Shown: in pieces, positions 2,919 through 45,419 of the stretch
Layout of the letters: every line of letters begins with the position of its first letter
Position numbering within the stretch: position 1 is the first letter of the stretch
Assembly (NCBI GenBank): GCA_025830695.1
Contig: GCA_025830695.1_4111.1
Direction: 5' to 3' (one strand)
Length of the DNA stretch: 64,000 bases
From: a phage
Made by a program: the position numbers and the translations under genes
The notes under the pieces: model-generated
What the model saw: the letters and a program-made list of their open reading frames with translations, nothing else
What the model was told of the DNA's origin: nothing
The model's database searches: none

Positions 2919-5082
<2,164 letters not shown>

Positions 5083-9444: not shown

Positions 9445-9452
9445 TATAAATA
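9445..9452 (+). promoter_or_regulatory. T4-type late promoter motif TATAAATA
   Basis: Exact TATAAATA about 40 nt upstream of ATG 9491. Confidence 0.45.
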
Positions 9453-9490
9453 ATCTATAGATAATGGCAGCTTGGCTATGGAGAATTATA

Positions 9491-11884
9491 ATGACAACTT
9501 TTACCCCACGATGGGATATAAAAGCCGATGCTCGATATATACAAGAAGGACAAGACATTCTTGTGCGTTTGAGTATCAATAAAGAAAGCACAACGGATGA
9601 TAGCTATGTATTAAATGAAGATGAATACTTAGAAATGATTCTTAACATACAATGCTTGGATAGTTCAGGTGCTGTATTTGATCCAGAACCACATTATACT
9701 TTTTATGTTGGTAATGACGAAAATACTTTTGTTCCTATTTCAGATGGTACAACTGGTAATAAATTAGTAAATGGTAAGCATAAGTGTAAAATCAGCAAAA
9801 ATGAATTTAACTTATCTGCAAGTACTAATAGTGAAGATGTTTATTTTATAAAAATTCATTGTAAAAATGATGGAACCTATAATAATACAGAAATTATAAA
9901 TTTTTATTTACAAGCAGTAAATGTTATGTATTTTGGAAATATTTCACCAAGTGGTGTTCTAGGATTAACTGATACATCAATAACATATGATAGTCAAGAA
10001 GTTTGGGTTACACCCGGAGTTGAGATTGGTGATGACAAAAAGCTTTATTGTATTGGTGATGTTGAGTATGGCTCCAACAGTACATTGTTCGTTCAAGGAT
10101 TTGGAAGAAGACGACCTTTCATTTTGGGTACTGACATGACTACTGATATTACACCTCGTGTCTTTTTTCCAGCATATCGTTTGATTGACATGGATATTTC
10201 TGAAGTTCCAGATAAACATATTACGAATGATTTCGCAGTATTCAAGCCAGCACAATCAACATGGCCTATTTCTGGTATAAACAAAGAAGTAAAAGTTAAT
10301 ATTCAAAATAGAAATGGTAATTTAATTGACACTGGAATGGTGTTCAACCCAAATGGGCAATTATTGCAAACATTTTTATATGACTCAGATGCTTGTGATG
10401 CATATTTTAAAGTTGAGATTGTTGATATATTAAGTACATACACCGAAGAAAGTGAAAGGTTTGCTATCAATCAACGATATAAAGCATATCAAATGTGGGT
10501 TTGTCCTGAAGACATAGATACTATATATTCTATTTCAGAAAAACCACTACCCAATCATTTATATCAATTAAAAGATAATGTTGTGTATCCATACGTAATT
10601 AGTGGTGAATACGATAATGGAACAATTAAGCCCGTTTATGATAGTAGTGATTGGATTGATTTAGGATATTATGACTCTACTCTTGGTGATAATATCATTG
10701 GTATGCAAAAAATGTTCAGGGTTTTGATAAACGCAGAAGAAGGTAATAATATAAACTTTATTACTGATAGTGATTTAGGAACCATACATGTTGGTGAATA
10801 TTTTGGAGACAGTATATATCCTAAAATTGAAACTGATAGCTCTAATCAAGTTTCGTATGTTTTAGATGGTGGTGATGACATTAGAAAGTATGGGATAGAT
10901 TTGACACCAGATGGATATCTTGTAGGAACTGCATATGCCAAAAGTATTGATTTTAGTGAAAATGATGATATTAAATTATCGTTTTATGTTAAAGCATTTA
11001 GTACTGAAGGTGGTGAAGCAAGAAAAATATTTAACCTTAAGATTGTAAGAGGATTCGGACAGAATTATTTGAGTGCACATGTATTACCTTCGGTTGCATT
11101 TGAGAGAGAATGGTTTAAATGTATAAGTACTTCATCATTCACTAATCAACTATTTTTCCGACAATCTGACAATAGATATGGTCTTCAGAAAATACCGAAG
11201 ATGTTATTGAAAGAAAACTTCCTAAGTCAAACGTATCCATATACTAACCTTTCTGATATCAAGAAAGTATTGAGAAATAGTATAATTAACCCAAATGGAA
11301 CTACTATTCCAAATGGAAAATTTAAAATGGTAATGGGTAATTATAAAATAATATCAGCACTTGACAATCAAGGTAACTTACAATATGATCTATTATATAG
11401 AGAGGTTTTACCTGAAGGTTCTTTAGTATCTGTATCCAAAAATCCACGTCAATATACTCAAATCGACAACGGTCAGCTTGGTGAATTATTTGGTTTACGA
11501 CAAAATATTTTTCAGGCTATTGGTGAAGACACAACCAACTTAGTAAAAGACCCAACCGATTTACAAAATCGTGGTCTATACGTTGATGCGATACCAAGTA
11601 TCAGTGATGAAATGCTTGATACGGTTCCAAGATTTATGAATCACCCATACATTGAAGATGGTATACAGAAAAAATTCATGCCTATCATTCCAGTTGCATA
11701 TTGTCAACCAGGCAAAGGTGAAGCATTTTTCAACACTTTACTTCAGAACAATGAACATGGTACAATGGTAGGTGTAGAGTTCGAAATCACATCGGTTGAA
11801 TTCGGATACTTTTCGCATGAATCAGTGAATTATGTTTCAGATACATTTTTGATTACATTGCAAAACAATAACATAGGAGGTTAA
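9491..11884 (+). CDS. large hypothetical protein, possibly a virion structural protein
   Basis: Long ORF; start set at ATG 9491 after GGAG; late-promoter motif upstream; no catalytic motif recognised. Confidence 0.55.
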   Translation: MTTFTPRWDIKADARYIQEGQDILVRLSINKESTTDDSYVLNEDEYLEMILNIQCLDSSGAVFDPEPHYTFYVGNDENTFVPISDGTTGNKLVNGKHKCKISKNEFNLSASTNSEDVYFIKIHCKNDGTYNNTEIINFYLQAVNVMYFGNISPSGVLGLTDTSITYDSQEVWVTPGVEIGDDKKLYCIGDVEYGSNSTLFVQGFGRRRPFILGTDMTTDITPRVFFPAYRLIDMDISEVPDKHITNDFAVFKPAQSTWPISGINKEVKVNIQNRNGNLIDTGMVFNPNGQLLQTFLYDSDACDAYFKVEIVDILSTYTEESERFAINQRYKAYQMWVCPEDIDTIYSISEKPLPNHLYQLKDNVVYPYVISGEYDNGTIKPVYDSSDWIDLGYYDSTLGDNIIGMQKMFRVLINAEEGNNINFITDSDLGTIHVGEYFGDSIYPKIETDSSNQVSYVLDGGDDIRKYGIDLTPDGYLVGTAYAKSIDFSENDDIKLSFYVKAFSTEGGEARKIFNLKIVRGFGQNYLSAHVLPSVAFEREWFKCISTSSFTNQLFFRQSDNRYGLQKIPKMLLKENFLSQTYPYTNLSDIKKVLRNSIINPNGTTIPNGKFKMVMGNYKIISALDNQGNLQYDLLYREVLPEGSLVSVSKNPRQYTQIDNGQLGELFGLRQNIFQAIGEDTTNLVKDPTDLQNRGLYVDAIPSISDEMLDTVPRFMNHPYIEDGIQKKFMPIIPVAYCQPGKGEAFFNTLLQNNEHGTMVGVEFEITSVEFGYFSHESVNYVSDTFLITLQNNNIGG

Positions 11885-11885
11885 T

Positions 11886-12197
11886 ATGTTTAATCCGTTT
11901 TTTGACCCGTCTGGAATGACGGAAAAAGAACTACAGTTAAAAATTAATGAACAGTCAATGCGTTTAACTTCTGCTCGTGCTGCTGGCCTAAGCGACATGA
12001 TTATTGGTAATATGCAAACTGTCTTAAATCAATGTTATGCTGAACTAGAACTTCGCCAAGGACAAAAAGAAAAAACTGTTTATGACGAAGAAGACCCATG
12101 TATCTTCGATATGGATTCATATCTAACTGACAACGAAGAGGCCCAGAAGAAGAAAAATGAAAGTACAAGGAAACAGATTTATAAGTCCCAATGGTGA
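11886..12197 (+). CDS. hypothetical protein
   Basis: 103-aa ORF, strong RBS GGAGG. Confidence 0.55.
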   Translation: MFNPFFDPSGMTEKELQLKINEQSMRLTSARAAGLSDMIIGNMQTVLNQCYAELELRQGQKEKTVYDEEDPCIFDMDSYLTDNEEAQKKKNESTRKQIYKSQW

Positions 12198-12675
12198 TGT
12201 GAAATGTAATCTTAACGCAGTTGTTTATGCAATCAATTGCGGTGCAGATATCCAGTACTTACAATTGCAGGAAATTGATGAACCTGAAAGGTTGAAATTC
12301 AATGATAACTGTAAAAAATTTGGCTTAGAACAACGTATGCTGGATTATACAATTGAGCATGATAAAAATCATGAACTGTGGCGATATGATCCAGTATACG
12401 ACAATATAAATCTGCGTGACTTTTTCTTACAAAAATGCACATCCGATGAAGCACGAAAACGTGTTGAGTATGAACTTGATTTATATGAATATTATAATAT
12501 GACAAAGCTACTAAGATGTATGATATGGCTTGTTGATTATATGGAAGAAAATGAGATCTTTTGGGGTCTAGGTCGTGGAAGCTCTGTTGCATCATACTGT
12601 TTGTTTTTGATTGGACTACATATGGTAGATTCATTGAAGTACGAACTTGATGTTAACGAATTTTTGAAATGGTAG
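12157..12675 (+). CDS. DnaE (Pol III alpha)-like palm-region fragment protein
   Basis: C-terminal GLGRGSSVASY...VDSLKYELDVNEFL matches DnaE GPGRGSGAGSLVAY...DLDPLEFDLLFERFL; ORF stops before the catalytic Asp motif; start uncertain. Confidence 0.45.
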   Translation: MKVQGNRFISPNGDVKCNLNAVVYAINCGADIQYLQLQEIDEPERLKFNDNCKKFGLEQRMLDYTIEHDKNHELWRYDPVYDNINLRDFFLQKCTSDEARKRVEYELDLYEYYNMTKLLRCMIWLVDYMEENEIFWGLGRGSSVASYCLFLIGLHMVDSLKYELDVNEFLKW

Positions 12676-12693
12676 AAAAACATGTGATATAAT
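12664..12693 (+). promoter_or_regulatory. sigma70-type promoter with extended -10
   Basis: TTGAAA-N18-TGaTATAATGTTT. Confidence 0.5.
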
Positions 12694-12716
12694 GTTTATT
12701 GTAGGCTTATATCACA
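12683..12716 (+). repeat. perfect 10-bp inverted repeat TGTGATATAA-N14-TTATATCACA over the -10 region
   Basis: Read directly from sequence. Confidence 0.7.
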
Positions 12717-12738
12717 CATACAATAAAAGGATTTTGAT

Positions 12739-13083
12739 ATGTCTAAACATACAACTTATCGTGGTACAACAATTGACATGGATATGCTCAAGTACCAAAA
12801 TCAACATCAGGTAGCATTAGGTAATGCTAATTTAAACGCACGTGGTGATAAAATCGGTTCAGGTGGAACAATTATTAAAACTCGTGAAGAGTTGATTCAA
12901 GAAAAAGAACGAGAAATGCAAATTCCTGATTATATCCCTGAACATCAACTTCATAGTACTGAACATGGTACGGATGAAGTATGGGATGATGAGAGTTTTG
13001 AAGTTAAGCCCGAAGAACAAGAAGCTGAGGTTTCTGAAGAGAAGAAAGCACCACGTCGAGCTAGAACCAAAGATCAGGAGTAA
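12739..13083 (+). CDS. hypothetical acidic protein
   Basis: 114-aa ORF downstream of promoter. Confidence 0.5.
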   Translation: MSKHTTYRGTTIDMDMLKYQNQHQVALGNANLNARGDKIGSGGTIIKTREELIQEKEREMQIPDYIPEHQLHSTEHGTDEVWDDESFEVKPEEQEAEVSEEKKAPRRARTKDQE

Positions 13084-13091
13084 TATATTAA

Positions 13092-13418
13092 ATGACTAAT
13101 AAAGTAATGACTGCATGTAAAGGTAAAGTACTGGTAACTGAACTGGAACATGGTGAACGCAAAACAGCAGGTGGTATCGTTTTAACAAACGATGACGGTA
13201 AAATTAGAGGTATTCGTTCTCGCTGGGCAAAAGTTTATTCTGTAGGCGAAGACATTACTGATATTAAAGAAGGTCAATGGATTTTAATTGATCATGGTCG
13301 ATGGTCAAGAACTATTGAAGTTGATGGTATTGAATTAAACTTGGTTGATTATCCAGCCGCAGTTAGTTTAGTTTCAGATGAAGATCCACGAACTAAAATG
13401 CTAACCTTTGGTCGTTAA
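13092..13418 (+). CDS. co-chaperonin GroES/gp31-like (Cpn10)
   Basis: 108 aa; mobile-loop-like KTAGGIVLT and overall GroES-like pattern. Confidence 0.65.
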   Translation: MTNKVMTACKGKVLVTELEHGERKTAGGIVLTNDDGKIRGIRSRWAKVYSVGEDITDIKEGQWILIDHGRWSRTIEVDGIELNLVDYPAAVSLVSDEDPRTKMLTFGR

Positions 13419-13432
13419 TAAAATATAATTAA

Positions 13433-13463
13433 AGCTCGGATGAATATCTGGGCTTTTTATTTG
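13433..13463 (+). terminator. intrinsic terminator
   Basis: AGCTCGGAT-GAAT-ATCTGGGCT (two G-U pairs) followed by TTTTTATTT. Confidence 0.6.
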
Positions 13464-13471
13464 GACAGATT

Positions 13472-13744
13472 TTGATGATAACTGATGATGGAAAATTTAG
13501 TTTCAAGGATGTAACATTAGTATCTAAAAACGGAAGATTCATGTTTGAAGATAGAAAAAATACCAAATATGTATATGAAGTTTCACATGATATGTTTAAA
13601 GTTTTATTAGTTGCATCAGCCCAAGCTGAAAGTACTGGGATTAAAAATAAGGCAAATTCTTTTAATTTTTTATTAAATCAATTGGAAATGACAGAAGAAC
13701 TTTTCACGGCTTTATTATATAATTCAGCCGATTGGATTCTATAA
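13472..13744 (+). CDS. hypothetical protein
   Basis: 90-aa ORF. Confidence 0.4.
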   Translation: MMITDDGKFSFKDVTLVSKNGRFMFEDRKNTKYVYEVSHDMFKVLLVASAQAESTGIKNKANSFNFLLNQLEMTEELFTALLYNSADWIL

Positions 13745-13767
13745 CACGTACACATAAGGAAATACAA

Positions 13768-14721
13768 ATGACCACACTATGGACTGAAAAATATCGCCCA
13801 CAATCAATGGAAGATTATGTATCAAAAAACGATGCACTACGCCAGAAAATGGAAGAATGGATTAAGACTGGTGACATTCCACATATTGGGTTTTTTGGCC
13901 CAGCAGGAACTGGTAAAACATCTGCGATCAAAGTACTAATTAATGGACTAGTTCAAAATGGACACCTTGATCCAAGTGATGTGACCACGCTTAACATGTC
14001 CGATGAAGGCATTGATGCTGTTCGTGACAAAATCGATGCCGCAGCAAAGCTATCATGTTTTGGTAGATATCGTATTTTTGTTCTTGAAGAAATGGAGCAG
14101 ATGAACCACAAAGCACAAGGTAGTTTGAAACGTGTAATGGAAGACTATCATGAAAATGCTCGCTTTATTTTAACAAGTAACGAACCACATAAAATTCAAA
14201 AACCTATCATTTCTCGTGTTCAAGTTATTACAATCGAAAAGCATGATATGGAACAATTCATGACTCGAATTTATAATATTCTTCTAGCAGAAGGTGTTGA
14301 TTTGAGTAGTGATGATAGTGTTGAACAAGTTCAAAAGTACATCAATGCTTCCTATCCTGATTTCCGTAAAACACTAAACGTATTGCAAAGTTCAGTTGTT
14401 GATGGTAAGCTAGTAAAACTTGAAGATAGTATTGAAAATTCAGCAGGGTATCGTACTGCAATTGTTGAAGCATTAAAGGCAGGCAACATTCGCCAAATGC
14501 GTGAACAAATTGTACAAAATATCCCTGATGATGAGATGGATGCATTTTTCTCTTACTTGTACAGAAATGCTGAAATGTTCAGTACTGATGAAATCACACT
14601 GATGAAGATTAAAGTTAAAATTCGTGATGCAGTTGTTAAGCAAGCAACAGTATCAGACCGTGAAATGAATCTTAGTGCTTTACTGTGTGAGATTGACCTA
14701 ATTTGTTCGGGGAACATGTAA
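13768..14721 (+). CDS. 44: sliding-clamp loader subunit (gp44/RFC-like AAA+)
   Basis: RFC box LWTEKYRP, Walker A GPAGTGKTS, SRV sensor; start at ATG 13768 after AAGGAAA. Confidence 0.85.
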   Translation: MTTLWTEKYRPQSMEDYVSKNDALRQKMEEWIKTGDIPHIGFFGPAGTGKTSAIKVLINGLVQNGHLDPSDVTTLNMSDEGIDAVRDKIDAAAKLSCFGRYRIFVLEEMEQMNHKAQGSLKRVMEDYHENARFILTSNEPHKIQKPIISRVQVITIEKHDMEQFMTRIYNILLAEGVDLSSDDSVEQVQKYINASYPDFRKTLNVLQSSVVDGKLVKLEDSIENSAGYRTAIVEALKAGNIRQMREQIVQNIPDDEMDAFFSYLYRNAEMFSTDEITLMKIKVKIRDAVVKQATVSDREMNLSALLCEIDLICSGNM

Positions 14722-15347
14722 TGAAACCACGTTGTATAGTTTTTGATTGTGATGAAGTTCTATTGGACCATATGGGTATGCTTTCTGAGTTTGTAAAACA
14801 AACTTATAATATCACACCATCAACACCATACCCATTAGAATATGATTTATCAGACTGGTTGGGTGTTCCTCAACCTGAAGTTAAAAAGATTCTTGAACAG
14901 TTCAACCAACAATCATATTTGTTTGGGTTGTTAAAGCCAGTCGAACCAAATACAGTTGATATTGTACAAGAGCTACGTGATCGTTTTCATAAAGAAAAAT
15001 TCGTAGTACTCACAAAATGTGGTAAAAAAGGCTATGGTGAAGTTTTACGAAATGTAAATCTAATGCGTGAATTTGGTGAAAACTGCTTTGATGAGATTAT
15101 TATCATAGAAATGAATGAATCAAAGAAAGAAGCATTAGAGGATTTACAAACACGATATGATGTAAAACTAATGATTGATGATTATATCAATAATATTGAA
15201 ACTGCTATGGGTCTTGGTATTCCATCAGTTATGATGGGATGTTCTCATAATACTATGTATAAGAATCATAGTGGTTTTGAATATATCGAAAACTGGACAG
15301 AACTTAGACTGAAAATTTATTCAGTACTAGGTAAATATTACAAATAA
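14721..15347 (+). CDS. HAD-superfamily hydrolase (putative nucleotidase/phosphatase)
   Basis: HAD motif I FDCDEVL, motif II VVLTK, motif IV MIDDY; start overlaps upstream stop (TAATG). Confidence 0.5.
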   Translation: MKPRCIVFDCDEVLLDHMGMLSEFVKQTYNITPSTPYPLEYDLSDWLGVPQPEVKKILEQFNQQSYLFGLLKPVEPNTVDIVQELRDRFHKEKFVVLTKCGKKGYGEVLRNVNLMREFGENCFDEIIIIEMNESKKEALEDLQTRYDVKLMIDDYINNIETAMGLGIPSVMMGCSHNTMYKNHSGFEYIENWTELRLKIYSVLGKYYK

Positions 15348-38387: not shown

Positions 38388-38606
38388 ATGAAATTTATTG
38401 ATTTTGATATTTCTAAGGCCAAAGAATTATTTGTAAGAAATGAAGTTTATGATATCATGTTACATAACGGCACTGTACAAGAAGATGTTGTGTTGTTTTC
38501 GTTTGATGGTGAAAATCTCGAAACTATATATAAATTCAGCAACTTAGATGGTGACTTTTGGGAAACCAGTGCTGTTAAAATGTATAGAATTAAAAAGGAG
38601 CATTAA
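38388..38606 (+). CDS. hypothetical protein
   Basis: Trimmed to ATG after AGGAGGA. Confidence 0.5.
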   Translation: MKFIDFDISKAKELFVRNEVYDIMLHNGTVQEDVVLFSFDGENLETIYKFSNLDGDFWETSAVKMYRIKKEH

Positions 38607-38607
38607 C

Positions 38608-39096
38608 ATGCCAATTCGTGGTGTACCAGAACCATTAATGGAAGTTATTAAGCATGTTCGCATTGGAGATCGAGAAGTTAATCTTCGCCGTAATAACATT
38701 TATTACTTTAAAACTTCAGAAATGAGTTCTGTACAGATTGTCATTGGTACATCTATTAAGATTACTCGTGTACTTGATGGTAGTACTGACTTCGTTGAAT
38801 ATAATGTACTTACTAATAAAGTAACGCATATATATAAATGGAGTGGGTATAAAACTATTAAGTATGAATTTGACTTAGCTAGAACTGAAGAAGAACGATT
38901 TATGCTGAGTACTATCAATCCAGCAAACTATCCCGATCTTGATGCATTTTTGCTAATTTTAAAATTGTATAATGAAGCAAATCAGAAAGCTAAAGAGTAT
39001 GATAGAATCATGTATGAACGCCGAAAAGAACGTGCACAAAAAAGTTATGATCTGTATGATAGCCCATACGTGAAATATAGTAAGGGGTCGAAATGA
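38608..39096 (+). CDS. EExFFQxS-motif family protein (member 12)
   Basis: TEEERFMLSTINP; start at ATG after AAGGAG. Confidence 0.55.
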   Translation: MPIRGVPEPLMEVIKHVRIGDREVNLRRNNIYYFKTSEMSSVQIVIGTSIKITRVLDGSTDFVEYNVLTNKVTHIYKWSGYKTIKYEFDLARTEEERFMLSTINPANYPDLDAFLLILKLYNEANQKAKEYDRIMYERRKERAQKSYDLYDSPYVKYSKGSK

Positions 39097-39497
39097 ATAA
39101 AGAAGTTCAAATTATCATAACTCCACCTATACAAAGTCTGGATGTATCCATTAGTGATTTTTTGGAAAAATACTATGAATGGTTTAATGAAGATTCAGTA
39201 ATTTATAACCATTCATTACCAGATGGTTTCGTGGAGCTTATCGAATTAAATTCAAAATCACTATACTTCTGTGTTGAATACAATGATTATATGACAGATG
39301 AAGCTTATCGCTTTCGTTGTACATTGTATCCGAATTATTTTTCAATAGGTTATAAAGATTACCAGTACTGTACCACTAACTATAGTGTTGAGGAAGAATT
39401 TCAGTACAATTTACTTTATCCTGATTTAGATTATACGATTGCAGTACTGTTGACTAAAATCATGGATTTTTATAAAGATAAATATAATGCAGCCTAA
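39093..39497 (+). CDS. EExFFQxS-motif family protein (member 13, divergent)
   Basis: VEEEFQYNLLYPD. Confidence 0.5.
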   Translation: MNKEVQIIITPPIQSLDVSISDFLEKYYEWFNEDSVIYNHSLPDGFVELIELNSKSLYFCVEYNDYMTDEAYRFRCTLYPNYFSIGYKDYQYCTTNYSVEEEFQYNLLYPDLDYTIAVLLTKIMDFYKDKYNAA

Positions 39498-39672
39498 GAC
39501 ATTTGATGAGTGGTTTAATCTACACTATAATATAAATGCAGCAGATATATACTATTTTAAGCTTGAATTGTATATATCATTGCGTAACCCAATTGAGTAC
39601 TATAACAACATTATCAATTGTGATGATTTTGGTACATATTTTAGTATAGCCGTTATGGATATTAAGAGATGA
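39487..39672 (+). CDS. hypothetical protein
   Basis: 61-aa ORF. Confidence 0.4.
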   Translation: MQPKTFDEWFNLHYNINAADIYYFKLELYISLRNPIEYYNNIINCDDFGTYFSIAVMDIKR

Positions 39673-39848
39673 CACATGAAGAATGGATGGCAATGATGAA
39701 AAAACGTTATGACCAGTTTGGAAATGGATTTATTGATGGTCATTTCGATATTTTACGAGACAAATATAAGTTCGAATCATATGTACTAGATGAGAATGGA
39801 AATCGTTGGTTCATCTATGAGCTTGCGGTTAGAGACAAAAAAATATAA
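39669..39848 (+). CDS. MTHEEW-family small protein (member 1)
   Basis: Not in ORF track; ATGA overlap; MTHEEWMAMMKKRYDQFGNGFIDGHFDILRD... Confidence 0.5.
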   Translation: MTHEEWMAMMKKRYDQFGNGFIDGHFDILRDKYKFESYVLDENGNRWFIYELAVRDKKI

Positions 39849-39865
39849 TAACCTTTTCCATTGTC

Positions 39866-39926
39866 CATTGCAATGCTTTCTTTACAGAAGAATAAATGAA
39901 ACACTTAATTGAACTGGATACATAAA
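39866..39926 (+). pseudogene. decayed remnant of the 3' end of a paralog of gene 40229-40444
   Basis: Near-identical DNA to 40386-40444 but with an in-frame stop. Confidence 0.4.
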
Positions 39927-40103
39927 ATGACACATGAAGAATGGATAGAGTCACTAAAATATAAACATGATCATTTTGGATTTGGTATACGCCAAGGCCA
40001 TTATGATGTTTTGAACGATAAAAAAACGTTCGAATCATTGGTTTTGGACGAAGATTCCAACCACTGGTTCATCTACGAGCTTGCTATTAGAGATAAAAAA
40101 TAG
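39927..40103 (+). CDS. MTHEEW-family small protein (member 2)
   Basis: MTHEEWIESLKYKHDHFGFGIRQGHYDVLND... Confidence 0.55.
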   Translation: MTHEEWIESLKYKHDHFGFGIRQGHYDVLNDKKTFESLVLDEDSNHWFIYELAIRDKK

Positions 40104-40108
40104 TAAGA

Positions 40109-40444
<336 letters not shown>

Positions 40445-40445
40445 A

Positions 40446-40628
40446 ATGACACACGAAGAATGGATGTCCAAACAGCATAAAGAACATGACTGCTTTGGGA
40501 ATGGCATTCGTCAGGTACATTATGATATATTAAGAGATGAAAATCTTTTCAGGTCATATGTTTTGGATACCAGAAAACCCTGGTTTATATGCGAACTGGC
40601 ATTTAGAAAGTCAAATAATCAAAACTAA
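40446..40628 (+). CDS. MTHEEW-family small protein (member 3)
   Basis: MTHEEWMSKQHKEHDCFGNGIRQVHYDILRD... Confidence 0.55.
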   Translation: MTHEEWMSKQHKEHDCFGNGIRQVHYDILRDENLFRSYVLDTRKPWFICELAFRKSNNQN

Positions 40629-40644
40629 ACAAGGAATACAAAAA

Positions 40645-40863
40645 ATGGAAACAACTTTATTTGAAGTTATTCAATCATTAAAACCTGAAGATGAGGTTCA
40701 AGTACTACTACATGGTTATCGTGTAAAAGGTACTGTGGTTTTAGTCAATGATACAACATTGGTTATTACAGAAACAAACCCATATGATAGTAATCAACTT
40801 GCCAATATCCATATCGATATCACTGGAATTATTGGTGTCGGTGTATCTAAAACACTTGCATAA
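40645..40863 (+). CDS. hypothetical protein
   Basis: Trimmed to ATG after AAGGAA. Confidence 0.5.
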   Translation: METTLFEVIQSLKPEDEVQVLLHGYRVKGTVVLVNDTTLVITETNPYDSNQLANIHIDITGIIGVGVSKTLA

Positions 40864-40916
40864 ATCATTAATTCATTATATAATGATTATCACTGGTTCT
40901 AGATGAGGATAATATT

Positions 40917-41189
40917 ATGCATTTTGAAAAATTCAACGTAAATCGTAACACACGCATTGAAGTTCTTTATGAAACTCAAGACACCATTAGTATTCGTACA
41001 AGTAGTGGGGATGTATATCATGACTGTACGATTGGCTGGGAACAGGGAAGGACGCGTAGTGCAGTATTTGATAATTATCGCTTTTATCAAGGAGACACTA
41101 CGATTTGGCCTGAATACGTAGAAGATATTGCGTTTGAAGATGAACATAAAGATGAATTTATCAAATTTAATCCTCAAACTGAATCATAA
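40917..41189 (+). CDS. hypothetical protein
   Basis: 90-aa ORF, RBS GAGGA. Confidence 0.5.
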   Translation: MHFEKFNVNRNTRIEVLYETQDTISIRTSSGDVYHDCTIGWEQGRTRSAVFDNYRFYQGDTTIWPEYVEDIAFEDEHKDEFIKFNPQTES

Positions 41190-41193
41190 ATAA

Positions 41194-41323
<130 letters not shown>

Positions 41324-41326
41324 AAT

Positions 41327-41427
<101 letters not shown>

Positions 41428-41429
41428 CA

Positions 41430-41590
<161 letters not shown>

Positions 41591-41594
<4 letters not shown>

Positions 41595-41751
41595 CACATG
41601 AAGAATGGATGAATGACATTAATTTTAGATATTCGGGTATCGGTAAATGGCTAAAGTATCATTGGGAATTCATTTCAGAGCCACATCTGTATGATAAACT
41701 TATCAACGATCCAGCATATGAAATGTACTTAATTGAACTACTGGTACGATT

Positions 41752-41755
<4 letters not shown>
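41591..41755 (+). CDS. MTHEEW-family small protein (member 5)
   Basis: 54 aa, about 80 percent DNA identity to member 4; ATGA overlap. Confidence 0.5.
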
Positions 41756-41917
<162 letters not shown>

Positions 41918-41925
41918 AAAAAAAG

Positions 41926-42335
<410 letters not shown>

Positions 42336-42339
<4 letters not shown>

Positions 42340-42371
42340 CTAAATAATTCAGTACTGAGGATATTAATATG
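42336..42371 (+). promoter_or_regulatory. degenerate copy of the promoter cassette
   Basis: TTGACTAAATAATTCAGTACTGA then a poor -10. Confidence 0.3.
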
Positions 42372-42396
42372 TTTAAAGATGAACGTCCAGATTTGT

Positions 42397-42444
<48 letters not shown>

Positions 42445-42449
42445 ATCAG

Positions 42450-42782
42450 ACGTATATGGTGTAAGTTACGTCGATGCAATCCAGAACAAGATCTCTGGTA
42501 CTCTAGGAAGTGGTGAATGTTAACCTAGACGGGTTTGATAATTGGACGATAGGCAATTATTACTTGACTAGCAGGTTTAAACTAGAGGTGACTATCCTTC
42601 ACCAAACTGGAAAACCGGATGGACTTTTATTTAAAAGGGTAAGGCGTGGAAATATGTTTACAGAAGTTGCTTTTAGTAGCCTGTACGCCCCACGTCAAGG
42701 TAGCCGAAAGGCAAGTTAAGACGGGTGGTTATAAAGCTGAATTAACAGCGGCGTTTAAAAGCGTCACCATCCATTTTTTTTT
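42450..42782 (+). ncRNA. candidate structured non-coding RNA
   Basis: About 330 nt without a credible ORF, visibly GC-richer than flanks, promoter upstream and T9 run at 3' end. Confidence 0.3.
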
Positions 42783-42798
42783 AATTAAAGTTGGTGAT

Positions 42799-43608
<810 letters not shown>

Positions 43609-43632
43609 ACGAAATTACAATAGGAAATTAAA

Positions 43633-43818
43633 ATGCAACTTTTAATTCTTTCAATATTGTATATTATTATAATGGTTCCGATATCAATACGTTTAATTAC
43701 ACTTGAACGATTTTTATCGAAACATGGAAATAGATCTATGATCTTAGTACCAATCGGGCTTATATTGTTTGGTATTTTTGCATTTATAATGGGAATTAAC
43801 GCTACATTCATTTCATAG
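43633..43818 (+). CDS. small membrane protein
   Basis: 61 aa, two hydrophobic helices. Confidence 0.45.
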   Translation: MQLLILSILYIIIMVPISIRLITLERFLSKHGNRSMILVPIGLILFGIFAFIMGINATFIS

Positions 43819-43827
43819 GAAACAAAT

Positions 43828-44085
<258 letters not shown>

Positions 44086-44093
44086 GAATTTAA

Positions 44094-44495
44094 ATGAAAA
44101 AGAATGACTTGATCAAAATGCTTCAAGAAATTGACGGCAATCCAGAGATTGTTATTTGGAATGGATACGTCGATGATTATATGAACATCGAAAAAGGCTT
44201 GACTAAAATCACTCTAGTCAAAGAAACCGAACAGTTTCTTCAGGGTGCATTAGAGCACGAATGGTGTGAACGTAACAATACATTCGACATTCCAGAAGAC
44301 CAACGAACCAAGATTGCAGAACGTGCTAAAGAACTGCATAAGAAACGTGAATACGATTTCCAGAACCCATATGTCACTGAAGACGAATTCAATCGCTGGT
44401 ACGGTAAAAAGAAATTGATAAAGTATGTCCTTTCACCTAAACTACGTGGTAAGACTTCACTTGGTGTATTCAACGCCGCAGACTTAAACTACTAA
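44094..44495 (+). CDS. hypothetical protein
   Basis: 133-aa ORF. Confidence 0.5.
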   Translation: MKKNDLIKMLQEIDGNPEIVIWNGYVDDYMNIEKGLTKITLVKETEQFLQGALEHEWCERNNTFDIPEDQRTKIAERAKELHKKREYDFQNPYVTEDEFNRWYGKKKLIKYVLSPKLRGKTSLGVFNAADLNY

Positions 44496-44507
44496 GAGAG
44501 TATTTAA

Positions 44508-44981
<474 letters not shown>

Positions 44982-45016
44982 CAGGGGAGGTTGTGATTCC
45001 CGATTCAGTAGCTTAT

Positions 45017-45139
<123 letters not shown>

Positions 45140-45140
45140 T

Positions 45141-45275
<135 letters not shown>

Positions 45276-45277
45276 TA

Positions 45278-45334
<57 letters not shown>

Positions 45335-45419
45335 AGTAAGAGTAAAAATGAAAGTAAGTAAAAAAACTACCAAGCAGCTTGAAGAACTTTGTAGTGCTGC
45401 ACCTATGCCGACTCTTGGC

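Follow-up and report, generated by a model that had tools for sequence, protein, structure and literature searches.

A split, "minimal" form of the alpha subunit of DNA polymerase III (Pol III alpha) was described by Iyer, Anantharaman, Krishnan, Burroughs and Aravind in 2021 (Viruses 13:63; PMC7824862) in the jumbo phages of their group 2.2, which are T4-like and carry a family-B polymerase (PolB). In these phages, of which Atu_ph07 is named, a phage-specific stand-alone N-terminal unit that binds the nucleoside triphosphate (NTP) and a C-terminal unit that binds Mg2+ and the template have their genes far apart, further Pol III domains are absent, and PolB accompanies the pair; the authors suggest cooperation with PolB in the synthesis of one strand, or a function in repair, and they propose the split enzyme as a model of the ancestral Pol III (PMC7824862). 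Here, we analyzed an open reading frame (ORF) at positions 12157 to 12675 of a phage DNA of 64,000 nucleotides (contig GCA_025830695.1_4111.1 of GenBank assembly GCA_025830695.1; the whole stretch is called the window), which a preliminary description had read as a stand-alone fragment of DnaE, that is, Pol III alpha. Our data point toward its product being the N-terminal subunit (N-half) of a minimal nucleotidyltransferase of the C family (Pol III alpha-like) that is encoded by two genes and assembles non-covalently, a reading to which we assign a probability of about 0.75.

The agreement with the published description is close. The 172-residue protein consists of a stand-alone NTP-binding palm subdomain only (PF07733 over residues 92 to 171; members of the family have 152 to 196 residues), a separate and distant C-terminal unit has the Mg2+-binding acidic residues and the template-binding part, and the genome is that of a T4-like jumbo phage of 348 kb with a PolB (gp512) and no other Pol III domain; we found no essential difference. 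The ORF is identified with the N-terminal unit of Iyer et al. from their description, without accessions, and the Rak2-like phages were placed in their group by the present analysis, on the basis of shared features. The split enzyme is, hence, already known as a computational prediction, which Iyer et al. reached independently. The 172-residue protein of phage CBB (CBB_328) had been noted earlier as a "truncated" Pol III alpha (PMC5259590), and later genome papers list the N-half simply as "DNA polymerase III DnaE"; a search of the literature for experiments on the split enzyme found only genome papers and Iyer et al. The discovery itself is not new, and the value of the present analysis lies in its confirmation and in a clean rejection of the reading of the ORF as a gene remnant. 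It adds the break point to within a few residues, the strength of selection, the size of the family (at least 478 clusters at 50% identity), the occurrence in 141-kb, non-jumbo Alishewanella phages, the ties of each half to a different replication module, and two conserved small neighbor genes.

The similarity of the ORF to DnaE is real, lies where it had been stated, and is far above chance. Residues 92 to 171 matched Pfam family PF07733 (DNA_pol3_alpha) on profile positions 16 to 95 of 260 with an E value of 1.9e-9 and 37.9 bits (curated cutoff, 23.9 bits), residues 98 to 170 aligned to E. coli DnaE 320 to 392 in pairwise BLASTP (E = 1e-4), and comparison of a profile of the N-half family with a DnaE profile by hhalign placed residues 91 to 172 on E. 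coli 305 to 394 with 96% probability (E = 3e-9). Furthermore, all nine sequences that the family profile matched in the PDB at E ≤ 1 were Pol III alpha chains. Pfam, BLASTP, and hhalign thus agree with the alignment given in the preliminary description, whose account of the sequence proved correct on all points, and the DnaE string GPGRGSGAGSLVAY...LDPLEFDLLFERFL quoted there is the segment that aligns. It was also right in stating that the ORF stops ahead of the catalytic PDxDxDF strand, the C terminus corresponding to E. coli ~394, five residues short of D399-F-D401-V-D403, and that no continuation follows, the next gene (12739..13083) having no Pfam match and no polymerase similarity. The palm-homologous segment terminates in the loop ahead of the DxD strand. 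The helix with R102 and E106 aligns to "RLETEL" of DnaE, and E328, the E. coli counterpart of E106, is also invariant across three reference DnaEs. Residues 1 to 91 lie outside every Pfam match, and no PHP domain was matched in the ORF at E ≤ 10. This N-terminal region folds confidently in an AlphaFold2 (AF2) model (predicted local distance difference test [pLDDT] of 69 to 93 by block), distant homologues align only from about residue 68 on, and W75 and Y81 are nearly invariant in the family.

The source of the window is an Asteriusvirus (PBECO4/121Q-like), a Rak2-like, T4-related jumbo myovirus of E. coli with ~348 kb. Positions 11000 to 14000 are 99.4 to 100% identical to some 20 Asteriusvirus jumbo phages of E. 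coli and Salmonella (PBECO4, SHEFM2K, BAU.Micro_ELP-22, and others), their identity to 121Q is 94%, and the entire window maps to the reverse strand of PBECO4 (NC_027364.1, 252588 to 189456) with 93 to 99.6% identity. From 38400 to 45350, the match to PBECO4 is broken into short blocks of 93 to 98.7% identity with gaps between flanks of 99.6% and 97.8%, and therefore, the window represents a relative of PBECO4 and not PBECO4 itself. The ORF is PBECO4 gp449 (annotated as "DNA polymerase"), 121Q gp56, and CBB_328. Besides gp449, the RefSeq record of PBECO4 lists two further "DNA polymerase" genes, gp512 and gp488. gp512 encodes a complete family-B polymerase of 1,001 aa, in which both an exonuclease and a polymerase domain are present. 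gp488 encodes a protein of 212 aa that begins MQDSTDSKHYRKARTDIDIDF and is a full-length member of PHROG 11778 (E = 2e-108); this is the C-terminal partner (C-half), which is absent from the 64,000-nt window. The preliminary description had offered a gene remnant, a domain co-opted for another role, and the first half of a gene split by an element. The last of these held in substance, the missing half being a separate gene 30.3 kb away on the same strand, outside the window, but the split is not one "by an element"; the other two found no support. The rest of the genome was searched in PBECO4, the closest complete genome, and yielded the partner gp488 and no further piece: in a DnaE-profile scan of all 2,955 ORFs of at least 40 aa, the N-half scored E = 2e-9 and the C-half E = 9, no further match fell below E = 0.8, and no PHP, OB, HhH, or other Pol III segment appeared.

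Because sequence-only detection of the C-half is weak (a three-sequence DnaE hidden Markov model [HMM] scores it at only E = 9), its homology had to be established by profile-profile and fold comparison. A concatenated profile of the N- and C-half families aligned to DnaE with 97.8% probability (hhalign, E = 9e-13) over 219 columns and across the junction. On the N side, residues 99 to 172 fell on E. coli 321 to 395; on the C side, TDIDIDF fell on 399 to 406, PHNSGV on KHAGGV (~511), QKVDIL on VKFDFL (553 to 557, with K553 and D555), and AMIRPGK on ALFRPGP (~637 to 645), where the alignment stops. E. coli ~415 to 505, the thumb, is deleted. Modeled separately by AF2, the halves reached a mean pLDDT of 87.5 (N-half) and 94.8 (C-half). 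The sheet of the C-half model comprises strands 17 to 21 (DIDID), 34 to 41, 44 to 53, and 80 to 85 (KVDIL), its 12 best Foldseek matches were all Pol III alpha, and ~190 of its 212 residues align, including finger helices; for both halves, the top structural matches were exclusively C-family replicases. Taken together, the joint profile and the structural data strongly support DnaE homology of the C-half. Its family comprises 785 clusters at 90% identity in a word-indexed search, with members of ~190 to 220 aa and D16, D18, D20, H48, G51, G77, K80, D82, R149, P150, K152, H190, and Y194 invariant; DxDxD lies 1 to 19 residues from the N terminus in 120 of 120 homologues among the matches listed. 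In Atu_ph07 (NC_042013.1), the RefSeq coding sequence of the C-half, gp074, starts at an internal Met (locus position 4067) and thus omits the DIDIDF strand; the ORF begins with MKNIPDIDIDF ~27 codons upstream. Several other records label the C-half "putative membrane protein" or "hypothetical", and across the entries of the split enzyme the labels of the N-half vary likewise ("hypothetical", "truncated", "DNA polymerase III", "membrane protein").

How might two such proteins form one enzyme? In the Pol-beta-like nucleotidyltransferase fold, an hG[GS] loop follows the first core strand, two metal-binding Asp residues are on the second strand, and a third Asp is on the third strand. Judged by its sequence, the segment from G137 to S146 is the hG[GS] NTP-binding loop of this fold (R362-G363-S364 in E. 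coli), and the alignments place the cut past the helix that follows the GS loop and ahead of the DxD strand, in a loop equivalent to E. coli 392 to 398. With the cut at this position, the window protein would contribute the first strand and the NTP loop, and gp488 all three acidic residues. In our model, the helical scaffold comes from the N-half, as do the first core strand and the triphosphate-binding GRGSS loop, and gp488 would add the strand with DxDxD, KVD82IL with the third catalytic Asp, and much reduced fingers (IRPGK, FKKxHAxAY); the active site would be composite and is predicted to form only in the non-covalent heterodimer. In the model of the isolated N-half, no DSSP strand was assigned within residues 132 to 146, and pLDDT had its minimum there, 74, in block 131 to 140, which lies just ahead of the GRGSS loop and overlaps its start. 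The missing strand and the dip are as expected if this segment needs partner strands and may be read in this way.

Both halves were found, on the same strand, in every lineage checked, never adjacent and 10 to 224 kb apart (Table 1). They were individually confirmed in PBECO4, 121Q, RaK2, GAP32, CBB, fHe-Yen9-04, the PA5oct-like phages, Atu_ph07, Phosso, CM1, and Xoo-sp13. When true full-length phage DnaEs (Streptomyces, Bacillus) are set aside, the tblastn counts of N-half and C-half agree genus by genus (Escherichia 34/34, Pseudomonas 11/11, Salmonella 8/8, Erwinia 8/8, Yersinia 4/4, Xanthomonas 4/4), Klebsiella giving 10/11 with a surplus record that is an 86-kb fragment. With the N-half of Atu_ph07 as the query, further N-halves turned up in Phosso, in Xoo-sp13, and in Slicko01, an Alishewanella phage of 141 kb (OQ508956.1, 79035 to 79262), whose 141-kb sister phage Slickus01 has the C-half (OQ508957.1, 68370 to 68840); hence, the split enzyme probably occurs also in genomes below the 200-kb limit commonly set for jumbo phages. 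The relative order of the two halves differs between lineages, and ~30 kb with dozens of core genes, including those for a topoisomerase, a Dda-like helicase, and ribonucleotide reductase, lies between them here. Each half stays in its own replication module: the N-half is found, with conserved synteny, three to four genes upstream of an RFC-like clamp loader, and the C-half adjoins primase and DnaB-like helicase genes.

The N-half belongs to a large and conserved family. The window protein is a full-length member of PHROG 11127 (1 to 171 of 171, E = 3e-87), and full-length copies of 172 aa with 77 to 100% identity were found by tblastn in Rak2-like phages of Escherichia, Klebsiella, Salmonella, Cronobacter, Pectobacterium, Erwinia, Serratia, and Yersinia; remoter stand-alone ORFs of 170 to 183 aa are present in PA5oct-like Pseudomonas phages, XacN1, Atu_ph07, RsoM2USA, and CM1. 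In an exhaustive HMM search of 1.84 billion cluster representatives, the number of matching clusters was 478 at E ≤ 1e-30 and rose to 962 at E ≤ 1e-10, so that at least 478 clusters at 50% identity is a lower bound. The best 150 representatives have 152 to 196 aa each, with a match that extends to the C terminus; relatives were searched for an intact gene among them, and none (0 of 150) was fused. Among 148 cluster representatives with 27 to 50% identity to the window protein, R102, E106, G137, G139, R140, G141, and S142 are present without exception (100%), and the GxGRGS residues are also invariant in a separate family alignment. In 140 of 149 sequences (the 148 representatives and the window protein), the C terminus is 2 to 4 residues past the F169 column. 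With the break point kept within a few residues across lineages of 27 to 50% identity, the split is ancient and conserved. Relative to 121Q, the gene has 20 synonymous and no non-synonymous changes, and the ratio of non-synonymous to synonymous substitution rates (dN/dS) is 0.01 relative to fEgEco12 and 0.06 relative to RaK2, both rough values, since dS is saturated (2.3 to 3.4) in these two comparisons. In Escherichia phage CMSTMSU (MH494197.1, 229549 to 229962), the match covers only residues 1 to 139 with 69% identity and there are two matching places, which suggests a frameshift, a sequencing error, or a disruption in that genome.

Compared to single-chain DnaE and PolC (PDB 2HNH, 2HPI, and 3F2B), the phage pair has the same Pol-beta-like palm with the GS loop, DxD, and a third Asp, the RPG and KSHA finger motifs follow in colinear order, and these enzymes are the best structural matches of both halves. 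In contrast, the pair consists of two chains of 172 and 212 aa instead of one of 1,100 to 1,400 aa, with the GS loop in the window ORF and all three Asp residues in the other protein, and it has no PHP domain, no thumb (~E. coli 415 to 505), only a small part of the fingers, and no beta-clamp motif, HhH, OB, or tau-binding region. In the strict sense of a single chain with PHP, thumb, and OB, the ORF is outside the DnaE/PolC family, and template-directed polymerase activity of the pair is a prediction from sequence. A dnaE homologue in two far-apart genes is also known from cyanobacteria. However, the Ssp and Npu DnaEs are split deep in the fingers, each half carries part of a split intein, and the halves are ligated by protein trans-splicing; the phage halves have no intein sequence and are split elsewhere. 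Since there is neither an intein sequence nor room for one, any assembly of the phage halves must be non-covalent. A catalytic core divided among separate polypeptides that are expected to reassemble is also found in the split gp43 PolB of some T4-like phages. The same holds for the phiKZ-like phages, whose multi-subunit RNA polymerase is encoded in pieces (PMC7824862). Folds and families differ in these two cases, and in the phage Pol III the cut passes through the catalytic nucleotidyltransferase core itself, between the GS-loop strand and the DxD strand.

Several points weigh against a two-gene, Pol III alpha-like enzyme. Association of the halves and DNA polymerization are predictions. The sequence-only evidence for DnaE homology of the C-half is weak: the Pfam finger match is below threshold (E = 0.045), hhalign of the C-half alone with the DnaE profile gave 65% probability, and the PDB profile search gave only two matches, to DnaE1 of Mycobacterium tuberculosis (E = 0.37 to 0.95), with four colinear motif matches (DIDIDF, a second stretch, VFQL...RPG, and FNKSHA). 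The fingers are cut down to ~36 residues between RPG and KxH, compared to ~110 in E. coli, and equivalents of E. coli R709/R710 were not identified. With the thumb, HhH, and clamp-binding elements lacking, it is uncertain whether synthesis would be templated and processive, and a phage that already has a complete PolB with exonuclease has no evident need for a second polymerase.

In the main rival, the composite nucleotidyltransferase is real but is no templated DNA polymerase and catalyzes, for example, untemplated 3' tailing, modification of primers or DNA ends, or the synthesis of a nucleotide signal or anti-defense molecule. The lack of thumb, HhH, OB, and clamp-binding parts, the heavily reduced fingers, and the complete PolB in the genome would fit such a function, and the Pol-beta nucleotidyltransferase superfamily includes many non-polymerase enzymes. 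We consider it unlikely, as the top structural matches of both halves are C-family replicases throughout, the finger motifs specific to DnaE/PolC (RPG, KxHAxAY) are kept and invariant, and the genes lie in replication modules, next to the clamp loader and the primase-helicase. More doubtful still is a 172-residue protein that acts alone as a co-opted, non-catalytic domain, binding replisome components of host or phage or serving as a nucleotide-binding regulator, its link to the C-half being one of shared ancestry and a shared genome only. The confident fold of the N-half by itself, its family-specific N-terminal region of 90 residues, and the fact that the two genes are never adjacent are in line with this idea. 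Yet the fully invariant residues are those of the catalytic NTP-binding loop, and the model has the pLDDT dip at 131 to 140 and no strand at 132 to 146. Moreover, a partner that supplies exactly the missing catalytic residues always co-occurs, both halves being present in every lineage checked, and in each of them the break point of the N-half is complementary to the start of the C-half.

Very little speaks for a recent split by a mobile element, intein trans-splicing as in cyanobacterial DnaE, or a continuation by recoding. Large phages often have genes split by homing endonucleases or inteins, the classic example of a protein split by an intein is DnaE, and HNH endonuclease genes are present in this genome. 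However, Pfam found no Hint/intein domain in either half at E ≤ 10, and no intein, homing endonuclease, or recoding signal was found at the junction. The 2 to 4 residues after F169 and the 1 to 19 before DxDxD leave no room for intein halves, ~30 kb of core genes separates the halves, no fused form occurred among the 150 best representatives, and the split is common to lineages of 27 to 50% identity in which spacing and order vary. Last, a decaying remnant of a once complete dnaE, to which the length of the ORF (one seventh of DnaE) and the label "truncated" of the CBB paper (PMC5259590) might point, is already refuted, and a pseudogene is ruled out, by purifying selection (dN/dS of 0 to 0.06, with 0.01 to 0.06 for remoter relatives and 20 synonymous but no non-synonymous changes relative to 121Q), by hundreds of members (at least 478 clusters) of the same length and architecture with an end point fixed within a few residues, by an invariant NTP-binding motif, and by conserved synteny and presence in all Rak2-like and related lineages examined.

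The surroundings of both genes contain further features (Table 1). Directly downstream of the N-half, gp448 has no Pfam match; its N-terminal ~55 aa are kept at the same position in the PA5oct-like phages and Atu_ph07 (E = 1e-8 to 1e-15), and 84 phage records, whose genus profile is that of the two halves, have a homologue. The C-half has a small neighbor as well, gp487, which is tail-to-tail with it and overlaps slightly. Among the lineages compared, homologues of gp487 are adjacent and convergent to the C-half in RaK2, PA5oct, Paride, Atu_ph07, Phosso, and SCTP-2, and tblastn found 89 phage records, again with the genus profile of the halves. Its sequence carries WWW..R..P as an invariant motif, ends in a basic tail, and showed no similarity to Pfam families, PDB sequences, or DnaE; we rejected it as a missing part of DnaE (hhalign probability of 0.1%, no PDB sequence match), and it is possible that it is an accessory factor of the split enzyme. 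The replication module of the C-half also encodes gp495, a stand-alone DnaQ/RNase T-like 3'-5' exonuclease with weak C-terminal ExoX-like_C/QSregVF_b matches. That gp495 could be the proofreader of the mini Pol III is pure speculation, prompted by the absence of a PHP domain from the mini Pol III and by the fact that PolB comes with an exonuclease of its own.

A near-consensus sigma-70 promoter (11 of 12 matches: TTGAAA, an 18-nt spacer, the TG of an extended -10 element, and TATAAT) spans the stop codon of the N-half and is predicted to drive the downstream genes. In the 63-nt spacer past this stop codon, a hairpin at 12684 to 12715 was not significant (z = -1.7) and has no T-tract. On the other side, gp450 overlaps the start of the N-half and begins two bases past the stop codon of a virion protein gene, ahead of which lies a TATAAATA motif (T4-type late promoter); the window has only two such motifs, with ~12 expected by chance. 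Given the motif and the overlap, the N-half may also be read from a late transcript. After the clamp-loader gene follows an ORF for an NT5C/HAD-type 5'-deoxynucleotidase (PF06941, E = 1e-8), whose PBECO4 counterpart is annotated only as hypothetical.

Table 1. Features of the N-half, its partner, and their surroundings, and distances between the halves. Positions refer to the window unless another record is named.
Feature	Position or distance	Strand	Remarks
Predicted N-terminal (NTP-binding) unit gene, split minimal Pol III alpha	12157..12675	+	172 aa, ATG to TAG; PHROG 11127
Family-specific N-terminal region, aa 1-91	12157..12429	+	Beta-hairpin plus helices; no PHP or other Pfam family detectable
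Pol III alpha palm homologue, aa 92-172 (~E. coli DnaE 305-394)	12430..12672	+	Pfam, hhalign, BLASTP, PDB profile
R102...E106 of helix before palm core	12460..12474	+	Aligned by hhalign to E. coli R324 and E328; 100% invariant
Predicted NTP-binding loop G137-L-G-R-G-S-S-V-A-S146	12565..12594	+	Counterpart of DnaE GPGRGSxAGS
Protein end, F169 then L-K-W, stop codon	12661..12675	+	F169 = E. coli F391 of ERFLNPER; conserved break point
Late promoter motif	9445-9452	+	11 nt ahead of virion protein gene
Virion protein gene	9464-11884		806 aa
gp450	11886-12197	+	103 aa; PHROG 15348; 41-nt overlap with N-half start
Sigma-70 promoter (predicted)	12664-12693	+	
gp448	12739-13083	+	114 aa; PHROG 14844
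5'-Deoxynucleotidase ORF	14703-15347	+	214 aa
gp488 (C-half)	PBECO4 270767-271405		212 aa; same strand as gp449
gp487	PBECO4 locus L009:17428-17781	+	117 aa; PHROG 11637; outside window
gp495	PBECO4 locus L009:22742-23560	-	272 aa
Atu_ph07 gp074 (C-half)	Locus L018:3986-4561	+	RefSeq start at internal Met
N-half/C-half separation, Alishewanella	~10 kb		Cross-record estimate, two sister phages
N-half/C-half separation, CM1 and Xoo-sp13	14 kb		
N-half/C-half separation, Asteriusvirus and other Rak2-likes	30-34 kb		
N-half/C-half separation, PA5oct-likes	43 kb		
N-half/C-half separation, Atu_ph07	182 kb		
N-half/C-half separation, Phosso	224 kb		

If the two halves assemble to a Pol III alpha-like nucleotidyltransferase as we propose, the enzyme would accompany the family-B replicase of the phage, most likely in short-patch or primer-extension synthesis in the replisome or in repair. 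A role of low processivity is the most plausible one because PHP is absent, most of the thumb is gone, there is no clamp motif, and the fingers are strongly shortened; candidates are primer extension beside the primase-helicase, gap filling, and repair. It is imaginable, as a tentative extension of the model that we favor much less than the model itself, that the halves are a working second DNA polymerase of the phage replisome, perhaps recruiting gp448-like and gp487-like proteins and/or a DnaQ-like exonuclease. One possible role would then be that of a primer extender like Pol alpha or DnaE that is coupled to the adjacent primase-helicase and hands off to the family-B polymerase. If true, these phages would have a natural two-polymerase system of a B-family and a C-family enzyme, and the latter would be the smallest known C-family catalytic core, with its active site across a subunit interface.

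In sum, metagenomes contain hundreds of clusters of this large family. An active heterodimer would define the minimal catalytic core of the bacterial replicase family, with ~380 residues in two chains compared to more than 1,100 in one, and would be an example from nature of fragment complementation that builds an active site, and it would raise the question of why T4-like giant phages keep a C-family enzyme beside a complete family-B replicase. The finding has a bearing on hypotheses about the origin of Pol III, on gene annotation, and possibly on enzyme engineering.

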